NCBI GenBank assembly: GCA_049317285.1
Contig: JBMOIO010000001.1
Location: forward strand, 86,388-148,192
From: Minisyncoccia bacterium
GTDB taxonomy: Bacteria > Patescibacteriota > Minisyncoccia > Phycocordibacterales > UBA9973
Direction: 5' to 3'
Length of the DNA stretch: 61,805 bases
The number at the start of each line of letters is the position of its first letter. Within the stretch, counting starts at the first letter, position 1. The notes under the pieces are model-generated. The model saw only the letters and a list, made by a program, of their open reading frames with translations, was not told the DNA's origin and did not search any database. Positions 2,233-52,782 of the stretch are shown here, one piece after another. Both the position numbers and the translations under genes were made by a program.

Positions 2233-2346
2233 AGTCCTGGCAGCTACCTACTTTCCCCACAAAAGTGAGTATCATCGGTTCTACAGGTCTTAACTTCTCT
2301 GGTCGGAATGGGAAGAGGTGTGACCCCTGCGACAAACCACCAAGAC
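2233..2346 (-). rRNA. rrf: 5S ribosomal RNA
   Basis: The reverse complement reads gtcttggtggtttgtcgcaggggtcacacctcttcccattccgaccagagaagttaagacctgtagaaccgatgatactcacttttgtggggaaagtaggtagctgccaggact, which has typical 5S helices and loop motifs. Confidence 0.9.
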
Positions 2347-2546
2347 AGTGGATTCGAACAAATTATTTTTTATGTTTTTTCTGACCCCGCATAGCGCTTT
2401 CGCGCGACGTGGGGATGATTTCCAGATTTCCTAATAGGAATCGGGCAATTAGTACACCTCAGCTCAACATATTACTACGCTTCCACTTAGTGCCTATCAA
2501 CGTGATCATCTCTCACGGCCCTCAAACGATATCTAATCTTGGAACT

Positions 2547-2579
<33 letters not shown>

Positions 2580-2721
2580 ATTCCGAACATAGCTACCGGG
2601 CGGTCCAGCTGGCGCTAGAGCCCGTACACCAGAGGTTCGTTCACTCCGGTCCTCTCGTACTAGGAGCGAATTTCCTCAAATATCAACGCCTGCAGTAGAT
2701 AGGAGACCAACCTGTCTTACG

Positions 2722-3133
2722 CTTCTTTTCACTCATTACTGAGCGGAACGGACTATATCTTGTACTCTTGCGAGCACCTCAACGTGTAGTCTCTACGGGT
2801 CCCCACTTCGTTCTTACGAACTTCGCGGGGTTCCCTCGGTGTTGTCCTCTCTTGCGAGTGGGGATTTCACCGATATTAGTTGAGCATGTCATTCAATGTC
2901 ACCATTGAAGACCGCCGTAATAAGATGGTTCTCACTTTTCCCACTTCGCGCTCACGCTCCGCGGGATATATCTTTTATATACAAGTGAAATTGCAGGATC
3001 ACTTGTATACATTTTAAACGAAAAGACTAAAACAGAATTATTCTGCTGATCATTTTATTGTAAAAAATGAACAAAAATTTCCTCGGGATTCAGACGGGTC
3101 GAGCAATCACAAGATAAATCTTATAATTACTCG
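2722..3133 (-). mobile_element. group I intron-like insertion in 23S rRNA at E. coli position about 2593 (the I-CreI-type site), with no ORF
   Basis: The conserved exon sequence gggttcagaccgt | ... | cgtaagacaggttgg (E. coli GGGUUUAGAACGU|CGUGAGACAG) is interrupted by about 412 nt. The upstream exon ends in U and the insert ends in G, as expected for group I splicing. Confidence 0.7.
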
Positions 3134-3160
3134 ACGGTCTGAACCCAGCTCGCGTACCTT

Positions 3161-3193
<33 letters not shown>

Positions 3194-3446
3194 TCTCCAG
3201 CCCCGGGATAAGGTGAGCCGACATCGAGGTGCCGAACTCCGCCGTCGATATGAACTCTTAGGCGGAACTAGCCTGTTATCCCCGGAGTAGCTTCTATCCG
3301 TTAATCTTCAACCGCATCTAATGCGAATTGTCGGTTCACTATGTTCTGCTTTCGCACCTGCTCGGGATGGCCCCCTTACAGTCAAGCCAGCTTATGCCAT
3401 TGCACTATCGGCACGGTTTCCATTCGCGCCTAGCTGACCTTTGAAC

Positions 3447-3487
<41 letters not shown>

Positions 3488-3794
3488 ACCAATCAGGCAC
3501 TGTCCAACGGCGTTTTTTCCGCTGTTGTTAGAGTATGCCCATGTAAAAAGAAGTATTTCACTGACGACTCCACGCGGACCGAAATCGGCGCTTCAAAGTC
3601 TCCTTCCTATGCTACGTATTACACAAACATACCCAATACCAAACTATAGTAAAGCTTCCGGGGTCTTTTCGTCTAACTGCAGGTAACCGGCATCTTCACC
3701 GGTATTGTATTTTCACCGAGCTGGTCCCCGAGACAGTTCTCCAGTCATTACACCATTCGTGCGCGTCGGAACTTACCCGACAAGGAATTTCGCT

Positions 3795-4005
3795 CAACTA
3801 TTCCTCTCAGTTGGACTCTCTCTTTACCCTCCTCTTTCGAAGTTCGGGTCTGTGACGTTGGTCTCTCGTTAATCACAATGGACTATTTCTTCATTACGGA
3901 AGAATAGGTAGCTTGAAATGTAAATGATTATTGTATTTAATTGTTTATCGTTTTCTATAGACGGTCCTAGTCCGTTCTAGGCTCTTCAATAAAGAAAAGC
4001 CCAGA
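3795..4005 (-). mobile_element. small group I intron-like insertion in 23S rRNA at E. coli position about 1931, with no ORF
   Basis: The exon sequence acggtcctaaggt | ... | agcgaaattccttgtcgggtaagttcc (E. coli GGUCCUAAGGU|AGCGAAAUUCC) is interrupted by 211 nt. The upstream exon ends in U and the insert ends in G. Confidence 0.6.
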
Positions 4006-4040
<35 letters not shown>

Positions 4041-4785
4041 CAGGGCTTGTACAGGTCAGCTTGATATAATCGCACCACCCGTAATTAACCTTCTGGCATT
4101 GGTCAGGTGTCACCCCCTATACATACTCTTACGAGTTCGCAGGGAGCTGTGTTTTTGATAAACAGTTGCCAGGAAATCTTTCGCTGCGCCCCCCATAATG
4201 GTGAATTCAACATATAAATACATTAAATCCACCATTATGGGGGGAAGCCTTATTCCGAAGTTACGGCTGCTTGTTTGCCGAGTTCCTTGGGGATCTCTCA
4301 CTCGTTCGCCTTGGTCTACTCGACCTAACTACCTGTGTCGGTTTACGGTACGGGTTCTATAATACTAATCTTAGAAGCTTTTCTCGGAAGCATGCTCACG
4401 TGACTTACCGCTGGCGTACCAGCTATCGGGTCGTACCTGTTAGTTCAGCATTAAAGCTAGGGGCACGGATTTACCTGCGCCCCACCTTCGATACGCCCAC
4501 CACAATCCAATAAGTGGCTCACGCTACTATCCTTCGTCACTCCATCGAATATTACAGAAGTGTAGGAATATTAACCTACTGTCCATCGGCTGCGGCTTTC
4601 GCCATTACCTTAGGACCCGACTAACCCTGGGATGATCGTCATTGCCCAGGAAACCTTAGTTTTTCGGCGGGAAGGGATCTCACCTTCCTTGCGGTTACTT
4701 GTGCCAACATTCTTACTTCCACACGCTCCACCATGGCTCACGCCTTTGGCTTCACAGCAAGAGTGGAATACTCTCCTACCGCTCC

Positions 4786-5005
4786 CGAACTTCATAAAAG
4801 AAGGAATTACTCGTTTCTTTGTTTGGTCGTGAGATGGGTACTTCAAATAATAAAGAAATTTTGTCTAGGTCGTTCTTCTTAAGAGAGAACTTTTCCTACT
4901 AAAGATGAATCAGTGGGTTAAAAGGCCACTGTTCCTGCTTTGATTTCAATATATTATCCGTACCCGCTCCCACTAAAGAAACTTTCGCTTCCTTTATGAA
5001 GTTCG
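4786..5005 (-). other. IVS-like expansion of 23S helix 45 (about 220 nt where E. coli has about 22 nt)
   Basis: It lies between the conserved blocks ...ggaatactctcctaccgctcc and cgagccctcaaattcggtac... The ends form a long stem (cgaacttcataaaagaagg / gcttcctttatgaagttcg). Confidence 0.6.
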
Positions 5006-5086
5006 CGAGCCCTCAAATTCGGTACTACACTTAGCCCCGATTATCTGCGGCGCGAGATCTCTTGATGAGTGAGCTGTTACGCTTTC

Positions 5087-5118
<32 letters not shown>

Positions 5119-5692
5119 TCATTGTCTGAGAAATCTTACCTCCTTAAGACGCACTTAGTGTAAATTTAGGGACCTTATTTAGAGATCTGGGCTGTTTCCC
5201 TTTTGACTGACGGAGCTTAGCCCCCGTAGTCTAACTGCATCGTTTTTAATCCTTGGTATTCGGAGTTTGATAGGCGTCGCGAGATTGCTCCCTGTCGAAA
5301 CCTTCCAGTGCTCTACCCCCAAGGGGAACACGATACGCTAACCCTAAAGCTATTTCGGAGAGAACCAGCTATTACCAGGTTCGATTAGCTTTTCACTCCA
5401 ACCCACAAGTCATCCGAAAGCGTTGTACGACTTACCGGTTCGGACCTCCATGCGCATCTCTGCGCACTTCATCCTGCTCATGGGTAGCTCACCTGGCTTC
5501 GGGTCTCATAAGTACGACCAATTACGCGCTATTAACACTTGGTTTCCCTCTGGCTCCGGAACTTTATTCCTTAGCCGAGCCGCACTTATGAACTCGTTGG
5601 CTCATTCTTCAATAGGCACGCCGTGACGGATATAAATACCCGCTCCGACTCCTTGTAAGCATATGGTTTCAGTACTATTTCACTCCCCTCTC

Positions 5693-5737
<45 letters not shown>

Positions 5738-6577
5738 TTCTACAATGTATTTAGCCTTACCGGTTAGTTCCGGCAGATTCCTCCAAGCTATTCGTGTCTT
5801 GAAGTACTCAGGAGTAGAAACAAAAGAGGTATCTGTATTTCGAATACGGGGCTATCACCCGCTATGACGTTGGTTTCCAACAACTTCTTCTATACAAACA
5901 CTTTGTAACTCTTCTCGTAAAACGACGTTTCTATCCTACAACCCCGGTTTCCGAAGAAACCGGTTTGGGCTCCTCCCTTTTCGCTCGCCGCTACTTGGGG
6001 AATATCGCAGCTACGCTGCATTGTTTTCTTTTCCTCCCGGTACTGAGATGTTTCACTTCCCGGGGTGCGCTCCGACAACTCTTATGGTCGTCAGTAATAG
6101 AGGTTTACTCTATTGGGTTTCCCCATTCAGAAATCTCCGGGTCAAAGGTTAGAGGCACCTCACCGAAGCGTATCGCCGCCACTCGCGTCTTTCATCGCCA
6201 TGTAGAACCTAGGCATCCACCATATGCTCTTATTTCCTATTAGGAAATCTAGAAATCATGTTCCTCTCAATTCATAACAATTGAGAGGTTATTTTAACGT
6301 CCGTTGTCCTTCGACCGCTCGAGGGACATTTTCTATTGGACGGCTCTGTCTCTCCCTACCTGCAGCAGCACCGCTTCCTACCTTATCAGTTGGGAAGTGG
6401 TGCTCTTCTCTTACTCAGAGAAATGCCACGGGAGGACAGGATTGTTTTTATCAAATAACGCTCCATTTGATTCTCACAGAAAAGCCGCCGATTTCTCGGC
6501 GGCCCAAGCGACAAATTGTCAGGGCTATGCCGAGAAATATGTTGCTGTTGTTTCTGCAATACTCATTTGGTCCGGCT

Positions 6578-35326: not shown

Positions 35327-36787
35327 CTAATCAAGTCTGTTGAATAAAGGGTTCTCTGGCATCTTTTTTTCTTTCACCAAGTCCATAATTGTTTGAGCAG
35401 TAGTCGGCATAAACGGTTGGAGCAAGAAGCCGATAATATAGAGGCGCGTTGCAAGCTCGGCGACAATTGCTTGTGCGCCCGCCATGTCGGTCTTTGCGAG
35501 CTTAAACGGCTCCTTGTTTTGGATGAGCCAATCAAGTCCGGTGACTTCGCGCCAGATATCGTCCATCGCATTTTTCAGATCGAAGCTTTCGATTTTTTCC
35601 TTAAACCCTTCTGGCACTGCGTCATCAAACTCGAGCAAGTCTTCGTCTGTTGGAAGCGTGTACTCTACCTCATAGTTCACCACCATTTTCATAATGCGCG
35701 ATACGAGGTTGCCAAGGCCATTTGCCAAATTTGCCTGGTAGCTGTCCCGAAAACGCTCCTCAGTAAAAGGACTGTCTTCAAAGCTCGTGATTTCTCGAAG
35801 AAGAAAAAAGCGGAGAACATCTACACCATACTCGTTTGAAATGCCGAGCGGGTCGATCACGTTGCCGAGTGTCTTTGACATGCGCACACCTCCGTCCGCT
35901 GTGATAAAACCATTGACCACTATCTGGTGCGAGTTGGGTACGTCTGCCGCCATCAGCATTGCTTGCCACATCGCGCCTTGGAACCGGGTATTATCCTTTC
36001 CGCAATATTGCACCGGAGTTCCGTTCATCCAGTATTTCTCAAATGATTCGTCATTGTGTGGCCAGCCAAGGGTTGAGATATAGTTCACGAGCGCATCAAA
36101 CCACACATACATGACCTGACTGTCGTCGCCCGGCACTGGCACACCCCATGCCATTTTTTCTTTTATGCGAGAGATGGAAAAGTCCTGCAGCCCCCCCTCA
36201 ACGAACGCCTTGATTTCATTGAAGCGAAATTCAGGGATAATAAATGCTGGGTTGGCTTCATAAAACGCCAAGAGCTTTTCTTGGAATGCTGAATATTTGA
36301 AGAAATAGTTTTCTTCGTTGATGATGTGAAGCGCTGTTCCTGGATGCTCCGGGCACTCCCCGTCCACGAGCTCTGAATCAGTTTTTTCTGACTCGCACCC
36401 TACGCAGTATTTTGCCTCATAGGTCTTTTTATAAATATACCCATTGTCATACACGCGCTTCCAAAACTCCTGAGCGGCTGCCACATGGTGCTCGTCTGTG
36501 GTGCGGATATAGTGCACAGCATCGGTCACCCCAAAAGAAGCAACCTGCAATTTAAAGGTATCAAACCCCTTATCAACAAATTGCTGAGGAGTTATTCCCG
36601 CTTCCAGTGCTTTTGTATAGATTTTTTGCCCATGCTCGTCAGTACCGGTATTGAAAAAAACATCAAAGCCTTGGAGTGCTTTATAGCGGGCTACTGCGTC
36701 CGCCCGCACAAATTCAAGCGCGTGCCCCATATGAAGCGGCGCATTCACGTACGGAAGCGTAGTGGTGATATAGAATGGTGTTTTCAT
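35327..36787 (-). CDS. metG: methionyl-tRNA synthetase (short form)
   Basis: 486 aa: YITTTLPYVNAPLHMGHALEF ... KMSKTLGNVIDP. Confidence 0.95.
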   Translation of the reverse strand: MKTPFYITTTLPYVNAPLHMGHALEFVRADAVARYKALQGFDVFFNTGTDEHGQKIYTKALEAGITPQQFVDKGFDTFKLQVASFGVTDAVHYIRTTDEHHVAAAQEFWKRVYDNGYIYKKTYEAKYCVGCESEKTDSELVDGECPEHPGTALHIINEENYFFKYSAFQEKLLAFYEANPAFIIPEFRFNEIKAFVEGGLQDFSISRIKEKMAWGVPVPGDDSQVMYVWFDALVNYISTLGWPHNDESFEKYWMNGTPVQYCGKDNTRFQGAMWQAMLMAADVPNSHQIVVNGFITADGGVRMSKTLGNVIDPLGISNEYGVDVLRFFLLREITSFEDSPFTEERFRDSYQANLANGLGNLVSRIMKMVVNYEVEYTLPTDEDLLEFDDAVPEGFKEKIESFDLKNAMDDIWREVTGLDWLIQNKEPFKLAKTDMAGAQAIVAELATRLYIIGFLLQPFMPTTAQTIMDLVKEKKMPENPLFNRLD

Positions 36788-39396: not shown

Positions 39397-40812
39397 TTAG
39401 TGAAGACTCTTTTTCAAAAACTCGCTGAGTTCGGAAATAGTCTTTCGCTCTTGCGCCCCAGTGTCTCGATGACGAATAGTCACCGTGTCCTTAAGTTCTT
39501 CTCCTTCTTGCCCAAGCGTTTCAAAATCAATGACCACGCAAAACGGTGTCCCAATCTCATCCTGACGTCGGTAACGTTTTCCAATGTTGCCGTTGTCGTC
39601 AAACTCACACATATAGTCTTTTCGAAGCATCATGAATACTTCTTTTGCTTTCTCGACAAGCTCAGGTTTGTTCTTAAGAAGTGGGAATACAGCACATTTG
39701 ATAGGAGCAAGTTTTGGATGAAGTGCCAAATACATTCGAGTATCTTCCCCTTCTCCTTCTTCTCGATAGGCATTGTCGAGAAACATCAGGAAATGTCGAG
39801 CAAGCCCAGCTGATGTTTCTACGATATGAGGAATAAATCGCTCTTTTGTTTCTTCATCAAAATAATCAAGCGATACACCTGAGAACTTTGAGTGTTGAGA
39901 AAGATCCCAGTCTCCCCGAGCATGAATTCCTTCTACTTCTTTGAATCCTTCGAGACTTTCAAAATTGTATTCGACATCGTATGCATCACTTGCGTAGTGA
40001 GCAAGCTTTTCGTGTTTGAACCATCTCAGCTTCTCTTTTGGAATACCAAGCGCCAGGTACCACATGAGGCGGGCGTCTTGCCACATCACAAAGTGCTTTT
40101 GCGTATCTTCTTTCTTATGAAAATATTGCATTTCCATTTGTTCAAACTCACGAGTTCGGAAGATGAATTGCCGTGCATTGATTTCGTTTCGAAACGCCTT
40201 CCCAACCTGTGCAATCCCAAATGGTAACTTAACCCGAAGTGAGTCGAGTGTATTTTTGTATTCCAAATATATTCCTCCACATGTCTCTGGTCGCAAATAT
40301 ACACTATTCTCTTCATCAAGGACATCCACTGGTGAGCCCAGATTAGATTTGACCATCATAGAGAAAACGCGTGCCTCAGTGAGTGTTGCTTTTCCACAGT
40401 TAGGACATACAAGCTTTTTTTGTTCCCGAAGTGTATCAAGCTCAGTGTTAATAAATTCGATACTTGCTTTGTCTGCACTTATACCAAAATCTTCGAGTAT
40501 ATGATCTGCACGAAAACGCGCCTTACAATTTTTACAATCTACCTGAGGATCGTTAAATCCATCAACGTGACCTGACGCTTTCCACGTTGTTGGATGCATA
40601 AAGATAGCACTATCGAGCGCGACCACATCGTCTCGTATTTGTATCATAGACTTCATCCATTCATTTCGTATATTCTCTTTCAGGAGCATTCCGTAATGCC
40701 CGTAGTCATAAATCCCTGCCATTCCTCCATAAATCTCTGACGAAGGAAAGACAAACCCCCTGCGTTTGCACAGACTGATAAGTTGTTCCATTGTAGTGTT
40801 TTGCTCGGTCAT
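39397..40812 (-). CDS. glyQS: glycyl-tRNA synthetase (homodimeric GlyQS type)
   Basis: 471 aa: LCKRRGFVFPSSEIYGGMAGIYDYGHYG..., class II motifs, and an anticodon-binding C-terminus. Confidence 0.95.
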   Translation of the reverse strand: MTEQNTTMEQLISLCKRRGFVFPSSEIYGGMAGIYDYGHYGMLLKENIRNEWMKSMIQIRDDVVALDSAIFMHPTTWKASGHVDGFNDPQVDCKNCKARFRADHILEDFGISADKASIEFINTELDTLREQKKLVCPNCGKATLTEARVFSMMVKSNLGSPVDVLDEENSVYLRPETCGGIYLEYKNTLDSLRVKLPFGIAQVGKAFRNEINARQFIFRTREFEQMEMQYFHKKEDTQKHFVMWQDARLMWYLALGIPKEKLRWFKHEKLAHYASDAYDVEYNFESLEGFKEVEGIHARGDWDLSQHSKFSGVSLDYFDEETKERFIPHIVETSAGLARHFLMFLDNAYREEGEGEDTRMYLALHPKLAPIKCAVFPLLKNKPELVEKAKEVFMMLRKDYMCEFDDNGNIGKRYRRQDEIGTPFCVVIDFETLGQEGEELKDTVTIRHRDTGAQERKTISELSEFLKKSLH

Positions 40813-43304: not shown

Positions 43305-46300
43305 CTACTGCAAGCTTATCGCTTCAACAGCTGAAACAATAATTTCTTTTGCTCCCACTGTCTTTTTCATTTCATCAGAAAACAGTTCAACAATATTTTT
43401 GTACTGCTCAGGAAGAGTGAGAGTAATTACATCGTTGGGCAACAAGTTCTTTTCTTTACGAAGGTCTTGTACGGTTCGAACAAGCTCTCGATATTCCCCT
43501 TCAAGCTTCAATTCTTCTGTCATCGTCACATCAAGCTCGGGTTCTCCTACAAGTTCAGGGTCTTCAACAATCCCCTTCACATTTAGCTCATCCATAATGA
43601 TTTGCAGATATTCTTGTTTGAGTTCGAGATTTTTCACGCGAAGCGAGAGAAGTGGTTGACGTACCGGTATCATCACTTTTTTACGAAGTGCGTTTCCTGC
43701 AGTACACAGTGCCCGAACTTTCTCCATAGATTCAAGTACAGGCGTGTCCCGCAGAGCTTCTTCAGAAGCGGCGTGGGGCCACGTAGACAAATGCACACTT
43801 TCCTCATCATTAGTATTCTTCAATTTCTGCCACATATCTTCAGCAGCAAATGGTGCAAACGGTGCAATTACTTTGGTCAGCGTTTTTAGTACCGTATAGA
43901 GTGTCGCTTTCGCTTGTATGTCTCCATCCTTAATACGGTCTCGGCTTCGGCGAAGGTACCATGTGCTCAAGTCGTCCATAAAGTCGCGAAGCGCTCGCAC
44001 TGGTTCAAAGGTTTTGTACGCATCAAGGCTTTCGGTTGTCAGAGCGATGAACTGATTAAGGCGCGAGAGTATCCATGCGTCGAGCACATTGTCGCTCACA
44101 GTGTCAGTGCTTTCAACTGCTGTATCGCGATAGAGCTCATAAAACGAAAGCACGTTGTACAAGAGCCCGAACACTTGGCGCTGAAGTTCCACCACTGTTT
44201 TCTCGTCGTAGTTTTTTGAATCCCCTGGTTGATTGACCGAGTACATCCACAAGCGCAATGTATCCACGCCATACTTCGCTATCTGCTCCCATGGGTCGAC
44301 AATGTTGCCGATTGATTTGGACATTTTCTTTCCGCTCGCGTCGAGCAAGTGCCCAAGACAAATCACATTCTTGTACGCATTTCCTCGCCCCATGAGTACT
44401 CCAATCGCGTGAAGCGTGTAGAACCATCCGCGGGTTTGATCGATAGCTTCTGAAATAAAGTCGGCAGGAAAGCCAGTGCTTTCAACATACGCTTTGTTTT
44501 CAAACGGATAGTGGTGTTGCGCAAACGGCATGGCGCCTGAGTCAAACCACACATCCATCACTTCTTTGATACGGCGGTATTCTTTTCCGTCTTGCACCAA
44601 GACCACGTCGTCAATATACGGGCGATGCAGATCAAGCTCGTAGCGTTCGTTGTGCGGAAGCGGTACAAAGTCGACATGGCGGATTTCCGCATTGGCAAAG
44701 TTTACATAATCGCGCGTCGTCTCAAAAAGCTTATCAAACGAAATACCTCGTCCGTGCAGCTCAAGCGCACGAGTCACCGCACCATGCGAAATGATGAGAA
44801 TAGTTTTTCCCTGATATTTTTCTTCTATGTCATAGATAAATGCACCAGCGCGCTCTACCACTTCTACATAGGATTCTCCCCCCTCTGCTTTAAAGTTGTA
44901 TCGGTCGTCGCTACTATTTCGAACAGTGAAAAAGTCGTTGAGCGGTTTCCCGTCATAGTCGCCCCCCACTTTCCATTCGGCAAGGCGCGGGTCAGTAACA
45001 ATGGAGTCTTCCGCCATGCCAAGTGCACGCGCCATTTCCTGCGCTGTTTCAAGCGTGCGCAAAAATGGCGACGCAATAATCATGTCGATTGTTGCACCAT
45101 TTAAGCCCCTGAACGCATCAGCCACTTGCTGCACCCCAGCAGGAGTCATTGGGTCGCCGTCTTGGTTTCCATAATTCCACAACCCCTTGAGGTTGTGCTC
45201 GGTCTGGCCATGGCGCATGACAAGATACTTGTTGCCAGACTTTTTAGTGAGATTCTTCAGTGTTGCAATAGAGTCAACAATGATTCGTTGATTGTCGTCT
45301 GCCACCCATACCGGAAGCGGTGTGCCCCAGTATCGCTCGCGGGAAATCGCCCAGTCTTTAATGTTGCGAAGCCACTCCCCAAAACGCCCCTCTTTGATAT
45401 GTGAAGGCTCCCAATTGATATGTTCGTTTTGCGCGACGAGTTCTTCCCTCATGCGCTCCATGCCGATATACCATGAGTCGCGAGCATAATAGATAAGTGC
45501 AGTCTTGCAGCGCCAACAGTGCGGATAGGAGTGTTCGTACTTTTCTTTTTTAAAGAGAAGTCCGCGATGCGCCAAATCTTTTATGATATCAATAGCAACG
45601 TCTTCGTCTTTGACAAACCTTCCTTCAAAAGATCCTGTTCCTTTTACAAAGCGCCCGTCGACGCCCACAGTGTGAAATTTCGGCAAGCCCACTTTTGTGC
45701 CCAATTCAAAGTCGTCTGCTCCGTACATGACGGCGGTGTGCACAATGCCGGTACCGTCAGTGGTGGTGACAAAGTCAGCTGCATACACTTTGTATGCGTT
45801 GGGTAATTTTTCCGACTCCGCCAAAGCTCCGCCGGACACGTCCTTTTTATTCAAAAGCTCTGTGATGTACGGATACAAGGGTTCGTATTCAAGGCCGACA
45901 AGATCAGAGCCCCTTACTTCTTTTATGATTTCGTATTCCCCTTCTATTAAACTGAGACGTTCTTTTGCAAGAATAACTGTTTCAGTATTTTGCTTAACAA
46001 AAACATAGTCAATATCTGCACCAACTGCGAGTGCGACATTTCCTGGCAATGTCCACGGCGTTGTAGTCCACGCAAGAATAAAGGTATTCTCTTCGCCTTT
46101 TACTTTGAACTTTGCATACACGCTCAAATCCTTCACATCTAAATATCCTTGCGCAAGCTCGTGCGAAGCAAGCGATGTGCCACAACGCGCGCACCACGGA
46201 ATGATTTTGTAGTCTTTGTACAACAATCCTTTTTGCTCAACAGTGCCGACAATGTTCCACAATGATTCAATATATGAATTATTGAAGGTGTAATACGCAC

Positions 46301-46742
46301 CTTTTTTATCAACCCAGTACCCGATGCGGTCGGTAAAATCTTCCCAATCTTTGATGTGAGTAAACACACTATCTTTGCATTCTTTGTTAAATGCGGCGAT
46401 ACCAAAGTTTTCAATATCTTTCTTTGAAGTGAAGCCGAGCTTTTTTTCTATCTGAAGCTCAACCGGAAGCCCGTGCGTGTCCCACCCAGCGCGGCGCGGT
46501 ACATGGTAGCCCTGCATTGTTTTGTAGCGCGGGATGACGTCTTTAAATGCGCGTGCTTCGAGGTGATGGAGGGCCGGCTTTGCGTTCGCTGTAGGCGGGC
46601 CTTCGAAAAACACAAACTCACCTTTTGGCGCATCTTTCGACAAAGTCTTTTCAAAAATATTGTTTTCGCGCCAAAATGCCAAAACAGCCTCTTCACGAAG
46701 CGCTGCTAGTGATTTTTGGTTGTTGGATTCTAGATTTGACAT
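43305..46742 (-). CDS. ileS: isoleucyl-tRNA synthetase (type 2-like) carrying an inserted histidine-phosphatase domain
   Basis: 1145 aa: PPTANAKPALHH..., the editing-domain motif WTTTPWTLPGN, WAISRERYWGTPLPVW, DVWFDSGAMPF and KKMSKS. Residues about 505-700 form a PGAM/His-phosphatase-like insert (LVMRHGQTEHN...SPFLRTLETA...LAEW...IISHG). Confidence 0.95.
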   Translation of the reverse strand: MSNLESNNQKSLAALREEAVLAFWRENNIFEKTLSKDAPKGEFVFFEGPPTANAKPALHHLEARAFKDVIPRYKTMQGYHVPRRAGWDTHGLPVELQIEKKLGFTSKKDIENFGIAAFNKECKDSVFTHIKDWEDFTDRIGYWVDKKGAYYTFNNSYIESLWNIVGTVEQKGLLYKDYKIIPWCARCGTSLASHELAQGYLDVKDLSVYAKFKVKGEENTFILAWTTTPWTLPGNVALAVGADIDYVFVKQNTETVILAKERLSLIEGEYEIIKEVRGSDLVGLEYEPLYPYITELLNKKDVSGGALAESEKLPNAYKVYAADFVTTTDGTGIVHTAVMYGADDFELGTKVGLPKFHTVGVDGRFVKGTGSFEGRFVKDEDVAIDIIKDLAHRGLLFKKEKYEHSYPHCWRCKTALIYYARDSWYIGMERMREELVAQNEHINWEPSHIKEGRFGEWLRNIKDWAISRERYWGTPLPVWVADDNQRIIVDSIATLKNLTKKSGNKYLVMRHGQTEHNLKGLWNYGNQDGDPMTPAGVQQVADAFRGLNGATIDMIIASPFLRTLETAQEMARALGMAEDSIVTDPRLAEWKVGGDYDGKPLNDFFTVRNSSDDRYNFKAEGGESYVEVVERAGAFIYDIEEKYQGKTILIISHGAVTRALELHGRGISFDKLFETTRDYVNFANAEIRHVDFVPLPHNERYELDLHRPYIDDVVLVQDGKEYRRIKEVMDVWFDSGAMPFAQHHYPFENKAYVESTGFPADFISEAIDQTRGWFYTLHAIGVLMGRGNAYKNVICLGHLLDASGKKMSKSIGNIVDPWEQIAKYGVDTLRLWMYSVNQPGDSKNYDEKTVVELQRQVFGLLYNVLSFYELYRDTAVESTDTVSDNVLDAWILSRLNQFIALTTESLDAYKTFEPVRALRDFMDDLSTWYLRRSRDRIKDGDIQAKATLYTVLKTLTKVIAPFAPFAAEDMWQKLKNTNDEESVHLSTWPHAASEEALRDTPVLESMEKVRALCTAGNALRKKVMIPVRQPLLSLRVKNLELKQEYLQIIMDELNVKGIVEDPELVGEPELDVTMTEELKLEGEYRELVRTVQDLRKEKNLLPNDVITLTLPEQYKNIVELFSDEMKKTVGAKEIIVSAVEAISLQ

Positions 46743-46780
46743 AGTAGGATTTTAATATAAAATAGAGAAAATTTATAATT

Positions 46781-46975
46781 ATGGATAAGAAAAAAGAAAT
46801 TGAAAAAATGTCTCCGGTAGATGCATACAACAAAGCAGTTGATGATTGTGCCCAAAGTGCTGATATTAAATGCGTTGGCGATCCCGCAACAATGGGTTAT
46901 CAAAATGCTTCACCAAGAGACATTAAGTTTTTTGATGTAGATACTGAGACAATTTTGAAAAACAAAATCAATTAA
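46781..46975 (+). CDS. small hypothetical ORF (64 aa), doubtful
   Basis: It lies antisense within the roughly 230-nt spacer between the T-box terminator and the ileS start. No homology was recognised, and it may be spurious. Confidence 0.3.
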   Translation: MDKKKEIEKMSPVDAYNKAVDDCAQSADIKCVGDPATMGYQNASPRDIKFFDVDTETILKNKIN

Positions 46976-47165
46976 AAACCCGCCCACAGAAATAATCGTT
47001 TAGATTATTTCCAAGGGCGGGATTTTTTTATTCCGCGGTACCACCTTAGTTTGATCTCATTACTGCTATAACGGGCATACCCGCCGGGGTCTAAGTCCCG
47101 CATAGTCCGAAGGACGGCGTGGGATTCTTCCCGAAGCTCAGGGGTGATAGCCCCGTCAATGCTTA
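46974..47165 (-). promoter_or_regulatory. T-box riboswitch leader with an Ile (AUC) specifier, upstream of ileS
   Basis: Minus-strand RNA features:
- A GGGG-CUAUCA-CCCC hairpin with AUC+A in the loop (47141-47154).
- An F-box-like CCGUUA.
- The T-box core AAGGUGGUACCGCGG (47033-47047).
- An antiterminator UAAGG[UGGUACC]GCGG...CCGC-CCUUG.
- A competing terminator CCCGCCC...GGGCGGG+UUUUU (46974-47021).
- An extended -10 element TGcTATAAT at 47173-47181. Confidence 0.75.
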
Positions 47166-47243
47166 TACTTACATTATAGCACATAATACCTTTTTAGACG
47201 AGAGTGATATATCAAGATTTTTCGCCTATTGGAGGGGTCAGAA

Positions 47244-51114: not shown

Positions 51115-52782
51115 CTACATTTTGGAAGGGAGTGGGAGGGCGAGGAGGCGCAGGCCGTTTGTCATCGTCGTAGCAAACGCTTCTGTGAGTGCGAGCTTGT
51201 AGGGAGACTCTGGTGTATCATCGATCACCTTTGTATTCCCATACCAGCTGTTGAAGCTCTGGGAGAGTTCAAGCAGGTAGGTTACTAAAAAGTGCGGAGA
51301 CCACTCCTGTATTGCATGGGTTAACACTTCTGGAAAATGAATCAGTTGTTTCTCAAGCGTTGTAGTATTCCAGTTTTCTGGAAGTGTGGTATTCCCAGCT
51401 CCCCCCTTTGAAAGGATAGACTGTGCGCGCACAGTTGAGTACTGTAGGTATGGCCCTGAGTCTCCTTCAAAAGATAGTGATGTCTCCGGGTCGAAGTTGA
51501 TATCCTTCCCCGCTGCAGCGCGGAGGATTGAAAACTTAATTGCACCAATAGCGATTGCATCAATCGATTCTTTTGAAATATCTATTGCGCGCTCTGCCAC
51601 TTCTTCGGCAACTGTGTCGATCATGGTTTCTGCAAGTGGTACTCCGCCGAGACGCGACGACATTTTCTCTCCCTTGAAAGACATGCGCCCATGGTGAATG
51701 TGAATGCTCTTATCAGCCCACTCACTATTAATATGTTGTGCGGCATCGAGCACCACCGCAAAGTGTGGTACCTGCTGATTGTCGGTCACAAAGAGCGAGA
51801 GGTCGGGGGCGTAGCGCTCAAACTTCATGGAAAGCAGTCCAATATCCTTTGCCTCGTAAGTGGGGTTGTCTTGGCTGTTGATGAACACTGCGGTATTGAT
51901 GTCTTTGCGATCTTCAGCCGGGACATACACTACAGCACCTTCGCTTTTGCTGAATACAGCAGGGGTGTGTTTCAAAACAATATCCTTCCCTTCTACACCC
52001 GCTTCGCTTTCGTAGATATACGAATCGAAGCTTGAGCCAACGCGCTTCATAATTGTTTCAAAGTAGGCGATGTTAAAGTTCTTGCATGCACAAAACAATT
52101 CCCATTCAGGAGAAAGGGTTTGTGTGTAGAGATTGTCCGCAATTTCTTTTATTCGCGCATGAACACTTTCGTCATCCGAATAGCGTGCTGTCCCCTCTAC
52201 ATATGCATCGCCAAGCATTTCTATGGTGATCGCTGTTGCATCAACCTGCTTTTCCAATAGTATAAAAATGGCTTTTGCCACACCGAGCGAAATGTCTGAG
52301 GGAAATGAAGTGATGGTTACTTCAGCACCAGACGCGCGCGCAAGCTCCACGAGCGACTGCCCTATTGTGTTGTTCATCACGTGCCCAATATGAAACGGTT
52401 TGAAGAGGTTGGGGCTTGAGTGCTCTACTAAAATCTTTTTTCCTTTATGGATTTCTGTATTCCCCCACTCATTTTTTTTCTCAAGAATGGTTTCAAGTGT
52501 TTTTGCAAAGTATTCTGGCGCAAGGGTGAAGTTGATAAAGCCCGGCCCCGCTACACTCACTTCAGCAATATCAGTTCCCTTTTTCTCATTCAGTACAGTC
52601 GCCAAGGTATCGGCAATTTCCTTCGGATTTCTCTCAAGTGTTTTTGCCACAGCAAGCGCAACACTGGTGGCATAGTCGCCGTGCGCGAGGTCCTTTGGCT
52701 CCTCAACGACAATGGCCACCCCTTCAAGTCCATAGGAGTCTTTGAGTGCTTGTGCAATAAGGGTATGAATAGTGCTTTCCAT
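51115..52782 (-). CDS. argS: arginyl-tRNA synthetase
   Basis: 555 aa: SSPNLFKPFHIGHVMNNTIG (HIGH) and a DALR-type anticodon-binding C-terminus. The promoter TGgTATAGT ends 6 nt before the ATG, so the mRNA is probably leaderless. Confidence 0.95.
   Translation of the reverse strand: MESTIHTLIAQALKDSYGLEGVAIVVEEPKDLAHGDYATSVALAVAKTLERNPKEIADTLATVLNEKKGTDIAEVSVAGPGFINFTLAPEYFAKTLETILEKKNEWGNTEIHKGKKILVEHSSPNLFKPFHIGHVMNNTIGQSLVELARASGAEVTITSFPSDISLGVAKAIFILLEKQVDATAITIEMLGDAYVEGTARYSDDESVHARIKEIADNLYTQTLSPEWELFCACKNFNIAYFETIMKRVGSSFDSYIYESEAGVEGKDIVLKHTPAVFSKSEGAVVYVPAEDRKDINTAVFINSQDNPTYEAKDIGLLSMKFERYAPDLSLFVTDNQQVPHFAVVLDAAQHINSEWADKSIHIHHGRMSFKGEKMSSRLGGVPLAETMIDTVAEEVAERAIDISKESIDAIAIGAIKFSILRAAAGKDINFDPETSLSFEGDSGPYLQYSTVRAQSILSKGGAGNTTLPENWNTTTLEKQLIHFPEVLTHAIQEWSPHFLVTYLLELSQSFNSWYGNTKVIDDTPESPYKLALTEAFATTMTNGLRLLALPLPSKM

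Follow-up and report, generated by a model that had tools for sequence, protein, structure and literature searches.

T-box riboswitches were sorted into four classes in a 2023 paper (PMC10482949), and current accounts couple their shape to their mode of action, a long Stem I with contact to the tRNA elbow going with transcription and an ultrashort Stem I with slower, reversible translational control. Class III, exemplified by the ileS leader of N. farcinica, has a short Stem I, lacks the interdigitated T-loop motif (IDTM), and needs Stem II; its specifier lies in an apical loop of 5-6 nt, and Classes III and IV 'mostly regulate translation initiation' (PMC10482949). Actinobacterial Class III ileS leaders are known from N. 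farcinica, M. tuberculosis, and M. smegmatis (PDB 6UFM and 6UFG, as cited in PMC7583486), and T-boxes with an ultrashort Stem I are described in the literature as a (mostly) translational ileS class that sequesters the Shine–Dalgarno (SD) sequence. In transcriptional T-boxes, contact between the IDTM and the tRNA elbow is held to be generally required, so that the tRNA is captured ahead of the polymerase's arrival at the terminator; Stem III has been called 'indispensable for function', and steric sensing of the aminoacyl group is attributed mainly to a G·U pair at the base of helix A2 (PMC7583486). Here, we analyze a leader upstream of ileS, the gene of isoleucyl-tRNA synthetase (IleRS), in a 61,805-nucleotide stretch of DNA from a Minisyncoccia bacterium of the Patescibacteria (hereafter, the window; positions 86,388 to 148,192 of contig JBMOIO010000001.1, GenBank assembly GCA_049317285.1). 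The element is a genuine T-box riboswitch, and we consider it likely that it responds to tRNA-Ile and controls ileS by transcription attenuation.

The leader lies on the minus strand and, in window coordinates, is built as follows:

47173..47181, minus strand: extended -10 promoter TGcTATAAT, read from the sequence.
47136..47162, minus strand: ultrashort Stem I with a base resembling a kink-turn (K-turn), placed from the sequence and the alignment to the Rfam T-box model RF00230.
47084..47134, minus strand: Stem II, with a 5-bp lower helix, AAGAA opposite CUUAGAC, and an extended upper hairpin.
47063..47083, minus strand: Stem IIA hairpin CGGG-UAUG-CCCG (47083-47072), then UUAUAGCAG, placed from the IIA/F-box part of the RF00230 alignment.
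47050..47062, minus strand: purine-rich 13-nt linker GUAAUGAGAUCAA in place of Stem III, with no helix.
47047-47033, minus strand: T-box core AAGGUGGUACCGCGG, read from the sequence.
47011..47049, minus strand: antiterminator, with A1 (CUAAGG/CCUUGG), bulge, and A2 (GCGG/CCGC), from folding and covariation.
46974..47021, minus strand: intrinsic terminator, CCCGCCC (47021-47015) pairing with GGGCGGG (46985-46979), then UUUUU (46978-46974).
46743..46973, minus strand: 231-nt spacer from the terminator U-run to the ileS ATG, a lineage-specific insertion.
46781..46975, plus strand: ORF64, an orphan open reading frame (ORF) of 64 amino acids, antisense to the spacer.
43305..46742, minus strand: ileS, encoding an IleRS of 1145 amino acids, identified with Pfam.

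The promoter, Stem I, Stem II, Stem IIA/F-box, T-box core, antiterminator, and terminator had all been named in the original prediction, made from the letters of the window alone, and each lies where it was placed. That description overlooked the absence of Stem III and the G-C pair standing in place of G·U at the base of A2, and the K-turn at the base of Stem I is added here.

The identity of the element rests on a model match and on a family of related leaders. RF00230 matches the leader over its full length (model positions 1-219) with 49.7 bits, corresponding to an E-value of 6.4e-10 in a 601-nt region and 6.6e-08 over the whole window, where it is the sole T-box match. Relatives were collected in a search where each species was represented by a single genome and the query was the N-terminal stretch of 400 residues from the window IleRS; it returned 80 loci, all from Patescibacteria (labeled Paceibacterota, Nomurabacteria, Parcubacteria, Uhrbacteria, Kaiserbacteria, etc.); since all IleRS relatives belong to this group, the host is a member of the candidate phyla radiation (CPR), as had been suspected. 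In about half of the loci, GGUGGUACC(A/G)CG stands upstream of ileS, on the ileS strand. The window's T-box fold was superimposed on a MAFFT alignment of 19 leaders, made without regard to structure. In it, 90.5% of the cells fall in standard pairs, and shifting the 3′ partners by 1-3 columns lowers this share to 31-48%. Both sides change in 17 of the 29 pairs, and none of 500 column shuffles reaches any of five measures. RNAalifold, run independently, recovers the Stem I hairpin, the lower part of Stem II, Stem IIA, and the A1-bulge-A2 antiterminator.

The 19-leader alignment served to build a covariance model (R1), which was searched against 609 kb, comprising the window and 82 loci on both strands, and gave 38 matches, i.e., the window leader, among the best at 128.5 bits, and 37 others. 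All 38 lie directly upstream of ileS on the ileS strand, and none is found elsewhere in the 609 kb; the covarying homologs that the original prediction had called for upstream of ileS in relatives are thus present at 37 loci. In the 38-leader alignment, which was fitted to R1, 92.5% of the cells are paired and 21 of 29 pairs show compensatory changes. The leader has a patchy distribution, being present in 36 of ~77 species representatives. Divergent T-boxes were considered for the relatives without an R1 match and rejected: the gap before ileS is mostly shorter than 120 nt, so these loci truly have no leader.

The individual elements are supported to different degrees across the family. A TGnTAnnnT motif ending ~8-12 nt 5′ of the Stem I base is found in 24 of the 38 leaders, and in the window, transcription would start near 47166, a few nucleotides 5′ of Stem I. 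The K-turn-like base of Stem I is formed by the 5′ strand GC-AUU-GA and the 3′ strand GA-GC. Above it, the hairpin GGGG-CUAUCA-CCCC (47154-47141) has a 4-bp helix and a 6-nt apical loop, in which the specifier AUC (Ile) occupies 47148-47146 and is followed by the purine A at 47145. This helix is paired in 88-91% of the cells, with both-side changes at three to four of its four pairs, which, together with the RNAalifold result, bears out the claim of an ultrashort Stem I carrying its specifier in the apical loop. The loop measures 6 nt in most family members and 7-8 nt in some. An extra GC-rich hairpin stands between the Stem I 3′ strand and the K-turn 3′ strand in L083:2754-2830, L008, L013, L024, L056, and L003 (for example, CCCC-AUC-GCCCGCC...GGCGGGC-AAGC), so that the base of Stem I becomes a three-way junction.

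The lower helix of Stem II is paired in 96% of the cells and shows both-side changes in all five pairs. Above it lies what is probably the S-turn region of Stem II, judging from the family consensus GAAGAA / AGUAGAAC (CUUAGAC in the window); the window has a U at the G of the consensus AGUA, as do L043 and L013. The F-box CCGUUA (47074-47069) joins the end of the CCCG strand of Stem IIA to the UUA that begins the following UUAUAGC. The Stem IIA hairpin is paired in 100% of the cells, yet it is nearly invariant. This site probably corresponds in position to the Stem IIA/B pseudoknot; column-pair statistics on the family alignment gave no Stem IIB pairs in this nearly invariant element. The 13-nt linker that follows folds at 0 kcal/mol, and along the same lines, the Stem III site has no hairpin in 24 of the 38 leaders; its purine-rich flanks ...AAUGAG and AA.CAA are conserved. 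Stem IIA/B is itself missing from 14 of the 38, and in these, the stretch between the base of Stem I and the antiterminator end spans ~110 nt. These 14 leaders (L023:2803-2914, L045:2807-2916, and 12 other loci) also lack Stem III and the distal part of Stem I, and by their sequences they are candidates for the smallest natural T-boxes.

Downstream of the linker, the T-box sequence AAGGUGGUACCGCG (47047-47034) follows the conserved pattern AGGGUGGNACCGCG, and a bulge of 7 nt, UGGUACC (47043-47037), separates A1 from A2. The antiterminator core reads UAAGG / UGGUACC / GCGG - 12-nt loop - CCGC / CCUUG (47048-47012), with an A-rich A2 loop, AAUAAAAAAAUC; A1 is paired in 90% and A2 in 98% of the cells, with compensatory changes. 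The terminator has an inner helix of 10 bp, and its 5′ arm and the antiterminator 3′ strand are one and the same.

Folding energies of the single sequence tell little beyond the terminator, which reaches -27.3 kcal/mol (z = -6.9), a stability matched by none of 200 shuffles. The window antiterminator, at ~-6.4 kcal/mol (range about -6 to -9), forms in RNA without the terminator 3′ arm, in agreement with the fold proposed in the original prediction, but when the whole leader is folded by minimum free energy, the T-box architecture is not recovered, and z is 0.05 for the part lacking the terminator. Single-sequence folding is therefore uninformative for this leader, and only the terminator stands out.

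The expression platform is where the family departs from the translational class. A terminator hairpin with a U-run follows the decoding module in all 38 leaders, and in each, its 5′ arm is the antiterminator 3′ strand; for L006 and L027, the hairpin and U-run were established by reading the sequence rather than by script. The terminator averages ~-27 kcal/mol (36 scripted leaders) against a mean of -10.5 kcal/mol for the antiterminator (all 38). These values are in line with the transcriptional T-boxes of TBDB, for which the terminator is given as -19.5 and the antiterminator as -7.4 kcal/mol. The strongest single result is a three-way covariation, in which a base change in the shared strand is matched by both its antiterminator and its terminator partner. 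At alignment column 392, the triplet is A·U·A in 32 leaders and G·C·G in 5; at column 389, A·U·A in 27 and G·C·G in 3; and at column 397, C·G·C in 21 and U·A·U in 6. The window has the G·C·G form at columns 389 and 392. Since the shared strand covaries with both partners, selection has kept both alternative structures, as a two-state switch predicts, and the mutually exclusive antiterminator and terminator proposed earlier are thereby confirmed. No SD-like tetramer precedes ileS in any of the 38 genes, and there is thus nothing for a sequestrator to hide. The ileS start regions (window position 46742 and the 37 other loci) are AU-rich, with the start codon 0-13 nt past the U-run in many relatives. 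A terminator in 38 of 38 leaders and an SD sequence in none lead to tRNA-Ile-dependent transcription attenuation as the probable mechanism.

The sequence of events may be pictured as follows. Transcription would begin a few nucleotides past the extended -10 box, and the nascent Stem I would display the codon AUC in its apical loop, with Stem II and the Stem IIA/B element as its support. tRNA-Ile(GAU) would then dock through its anticodon on AUC. The 3′ ACCA end of an uncharged tRNA would pair with UGGU of the bulge, stabilize the weak antiterminator, and let RNA polymerase continue toward ileS; with a charged tRNA, the terminator hairpin (-27 kcal/mol) would take the antiterminator 3′ strand, and transcription would stop at ~46974. 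Bacterial tRNA-Ile has A73 as its discriminator base. We infer the binding of tRNA, the sensing of its charge, and the start and end sites of transcription from this architecture.

Specificity for isoleucine is reflected in the specifier, where AUC and the following purine are invariant across the 38 leaders, all upstream of ileS, and the flanking loop bases vary. The match between specifier and downstream gene, which had been claimed for the window, therefore holds throughout the family, even as the Stem I helix itself takes such different forms as GGGG/CCCC, GAGG/CCUC, AGGAG/CUCCU, GAAGAG/CUCUUC, and UCCG/CGGG. The gene (43305-46742, minus strand) is confirmed as ileS by the Pfam domains tRNA-synt_1, Anticodon_1, and DUF5915, and homologs of its product are named isoleucyl-tRNA synthetase in their source records. 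Three other aminoacyl-tRNA synthetase genes of the window were scanned with R1 and RF00230, and no T-box was found on any of them:

35327-36787, minus strand: methionyl-tRNA synthetase (MetRS), no T-box-like leader.
39397-40812, minus strand: class II aminoacyl-tRNA synthetase (G/H/P/S/T type), no T-box-like leader.
51115-52782, minus strand: arginyl-tRNA synthetase (ArgRS), no T-box-like leader.

The leader element is specific to ileS.

Several observations weigh against a tRNA-Ile-responsive transcriptional switch and have to be set beside this evidence. At the default curated thresholds of Rfam, no T-box is found in the window, the gathering score of RF00230 being 93 against the 49.7 bits obtained; the match surfaced in a scan with permissive filters, not in the thresholded scan. 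The long Stem I with its IDTM, characteristic of transcriptional T-boxes, is absent, leaving a 4-bp helix and a 6-nt loop, and so are two further features held essential in the literature, the Stem III helix and the G·U pair at the foot of A2. At the basal A2 pair (window 47036/47017), A-U occurs in 33 leaders and G-C in 5, the window among them; G·U never occurs. No tRNA-Ile gene was found in the window, in a search of 60 related loci, or in all 84 related sequences with ARAGORN, which did detect an E. coli control. Finally, ileS begins 231 nt beyond the terminator, and the intervening insertion has promoter-like sites on both strands, so that ileS might have a promoter of its own within the spacer.

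The first of these points finds its explanation in the architecture of the family. In the RF00230 alignment, 76 distal Stem I model positions are reduced to 6 nt and 19 Stem III positions to 4 nt, and the shortfall in score results from the absence of these two parts. Eight family members score 37-65 bits with RF00230, each below 93, and threshold-based Rfam annotation therefore overlooks the family. The original prediction had named a sub-threshold covariance score as grounds for giving up the T-box; the score is indeed below the threshold, but this bar proved too strict, and the comparative evidence overrides it. With regard to the tRNA, two contigs extending past the ends of the window contain tRNA-Ser(GGA) only, and no tRNA-Ile. 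The tRNA-Ser(GGA) gene lies at L084:7589-7676, ~5.5 kb before the window start, in another assembly of the same organism (SRR30676221), and it is the only tRNA gene in any sequence examined.

The distance between leader and gene calls for a closer look, and with it the alternative that best survives the data, namely, that the T-box is intact but the insertion has severed ileS, which would now be transcribed mainly from a promoter in the spacer, leaving the leader to end a short orphan transcript or to terminate a convergent ORF64. The spacer is missing in the closest relatives, L081/L082 and L083: the two closest have IleRS identities of 86% and 83%, and their U-run lies 13 nt from the ATG. 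Since the gene order (beta-CASP nuclease, SLOG-family protein, leader, ileS, recO) is the same in the window and these relatives, the 231-nt spacer is an insertion peculiar to this genome. The earlier claim of ~230 nt between platform and ileS, antisense to a 64-aa ORF, is thus accurate for the window, but the distance is not a feature of the class. On the minus strand, the spacer contains a weak promoter-like site, TTTTCA-17-CATAAT (46806-46778), 36 nt upstream of the ileS ATG, and a TATATT was noted nearer the ATG. On the plus strand, a near-consensus promoter-like site, TTGACA-16-TAAAAT (46736-46763), stands just 5′ of ORF64, which ends 3 nt short of the terminator hairpin; with the A-run on its 5′ side, this hairpin reads as a terminator on the plus strand too (GGGCGGG-A-UUUUUUU). 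The promoter-like site and the end at a two-way terminator suggest that ORF64 may be a gene, and it is a candidate at present. It has no Pfam domain, a search of 5.8 billion proteins returned no homolog but ORF64 itself, and tblastn gave no match in the 84 related loci.

Set against these features, the minus-strand site matches the consensus at only 9 of 12 positions in AT-rich DNA, where a scan found 5 such sites and 1.8 are expected by chance. The window leader is among the best R1 matches, and its switch differs from that of the nearest relatives in a telling way, the three interacting strands having changed together to G·C·G at two positions. We argue from these joint changes that selection has acted on the switch in this lineage and, given that they are compensated, that the window ileS depends on T-box read-through. 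Moreover, eight other lineages with spacers of 120-400 nt between terminator and ileS retain intact leaders. A severed leader is therefore unlikely, and the preferred reading, that of a working transcriptional switch, would have read-through cross the 231-nt spacer into ileS in this genome.

The long spacers of the eight lineages (L004, L008, L017, L024, L031, L041, L051, and L067) are mutually unrelated, and the window spacer has no similarity to them or to the rest of the window. Most of them contain different small ORFs on the opposite strand, of 20-118 amino acids, and some contain none; the largest of these ORFs, from L067, shows CxxC motifs together with a hydrophobic N-terminus. Owing to an A-rich A2 loop, the terminators of the window, L004, and L017 have U-runs on both strands. 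A shared mobile insertion was considered as the source of the long spacers and rejected, as they lack mutual similarity and do not recur in the window.

Far less probable is translational or dual control, in which the main role of the hairpin would be to sequester the ileS start and keep ribosomes from it. In favor of this reading, a translational mode is what the literature describes for decoding modules of this type, and in 29 of the 38 leaders, the start codon lies 0-52 nt, often no more than 13 nt, past the U-run, within reach of the 30S footprint; an added translational effect may therefore operate in relatives with short spacers. In the window, however, the hairpin is 231 nt from the ATG, which excludes an effect on ribosome access there, and the lack of SD-like sequences in the 38 genes, the U-run after every hairpin, and energies like those of transcriptional T-boxes speak against it in general. 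As for a chance resemblance, in which a GC-rich terminator would merely stand beside a fortuitous GGUGGUACC motif, it would accord with the sub-threshold Rfam score, the folds without T-box architecture, and the z of 0.05, but it is refuted by the E-value of 6.6e-08 and by the extensive covariation among 37 homologous leaders that occupy the same place in their genomes.

How the transcriptional T-box proposed here relates to the described classes was judged from review descriptions. As in actinobacterial Class III, it would control ileS, has a very short Stem I without IDTM, and reads Ile from a 5-6-nt apical loop; it shares the basal K-turn, the purine string of Stem II, and the bulge with A1 and A2, probably also the S-turn region and the Stem IIA/B element, and it is restricted to ileS among the aminoacyl-tRNA synthetase genes seen. 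The defining traits of the class, a short Stem I lacking the IDTM and a specifier in a penta- or hexanucleotide apical loop, are found in the window, where the loop is CUAUCA. Sequestration of an SD sequence is not: unlike actinobacterial Class III, the family has a terminator and U-run in 38/38 leaders and an SD sequence in 0/38, with 231 nt to the ATG in the window. It also differs in its Patescibacteria host, in lacking a Stem III helix in the window and in 24/38 leaders, and in lacking Stem IIA/B in 14/38. The likeness to the ultrashort, translational ileS T-boxes of Actinobacteria, here combined with a terminator, had been pointed out in the original prediction, and both the literature and the 38 terminators agree with it.

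With Class I T-boxes of Firmicutes (e.g., Bacillus subtilis tyrS; RF00230), the leader shares the competition between antiterminator and terminator, the K-turn, Stem II, the F-box, the 7-nt bulge, and the energy balance. Compared with the Class I consensus AGGGUGGNACCGCG, AAGGUGGUACCGCG agrees at all 13 specified positions but one (position 8 = N). The hallmark of the transcriptional class, a terminator followed by a U-run, with its 5′ arm supplied by the antiterminator 3′ strand, is likewise present. Unlike Class I, there is no distal Stem I and hence no AG bulge, distal loop, or contact of an IDTM with the elbow; there is no Stem III helix, and the basal pair of A2 is G-C or A-U, not G·U. 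Class IV (e.g., Actinomyces odontolyticus ileS) is resembled by L031 and L035, which have an extra hairpin 5′ of the specifier and carry the latter in a bulge on the side, between two helices; the window leader is not of this type, and L031 and L035 also end in terminators. In summary, the leader reads as a Class III decoding module joined to a terminator, without an IDTM or a Stem III helix.

The synthetase under this proposed control has a feature of its own. IleRS contains a His_Phos_1 (PF00300) histidine-phosphatase domain at residues 507-680, inside the synthetase core, and the same insertion is found in all 120 best IleRS homologs, which points to a clade-wide IleRS-phosphatase fusion in these Patescibacteria. 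As it is closest to structures 8c8u-8c9d and 1ile and distant from 1ffy, the enzyme is a type-2 IleRS; actinobacterial IleRS is likewise type 2.

Elsewhere in the window, the 23S rRNA gene (2429-6243, minus strand) spans 3815 nt against a 2925-position model and includes a group I intron at 2729-2934. The 5S gene (2235-2344, minus strand) follows it, and as no 16S or tRNA gene adjoins the pair, the rRNA operon is unlinked.

The riboswitch is of a known kind; its phylum is new, and its minimal form is atypical and transcriptional throughout the family. In the literature searched, whose coverage is incomplete, full-text queries joining T-box with Patescibacteria, candidate phyla radiation, Parcubacteria, or Saccharibacteria returned nothing relevant, in keeping with the earlier statement that no T-box was known from this group. 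The ultrashort-Stem-I model of TBDB was searched in Actinobacteria only, and its text names no CPR group. Given the wording of the literature ('mostly', 'many'), terminator-type leaders with a short Stem I may already have been noted in Actinobacteria.

A broader reading, which we hold tentatively and with somewhat less than even confidence, is that Patescibacteria carry a natural minimal transcriptional T-box that captures tRNA-Ile and senses its charge without elbow contact, a Stem III helix, or a G·U pair, some relatives also doing without Stem IIA/B in the ~110 nt that reach to the antiterminator end. If this is true, three elements held essential for transcriptional T-boxes, i.e., elbow contact, Stem III, and the G·U pair, would be dispensable, and a form confined to ileS would be common to Actinobacteria and the CPR. 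Such a form could be near the ancestral T-box, or could have been transferred between the groups together with a type-2 ileS. The covarying family, which joins an ultrashort module to a terminator and mostly lacks Stem III, offers natural test cases for the rules that couple T-box shape to mode, as well as very small T-box scaffolds for structural and engineering work. It extends T-boxes to the Patescibacteria, a very large group whose members are mostly uncultivated and about whose gene regulation hardly anything is known, and the presence of the leader in about half of the related species provides material for tracing its gain and loss.

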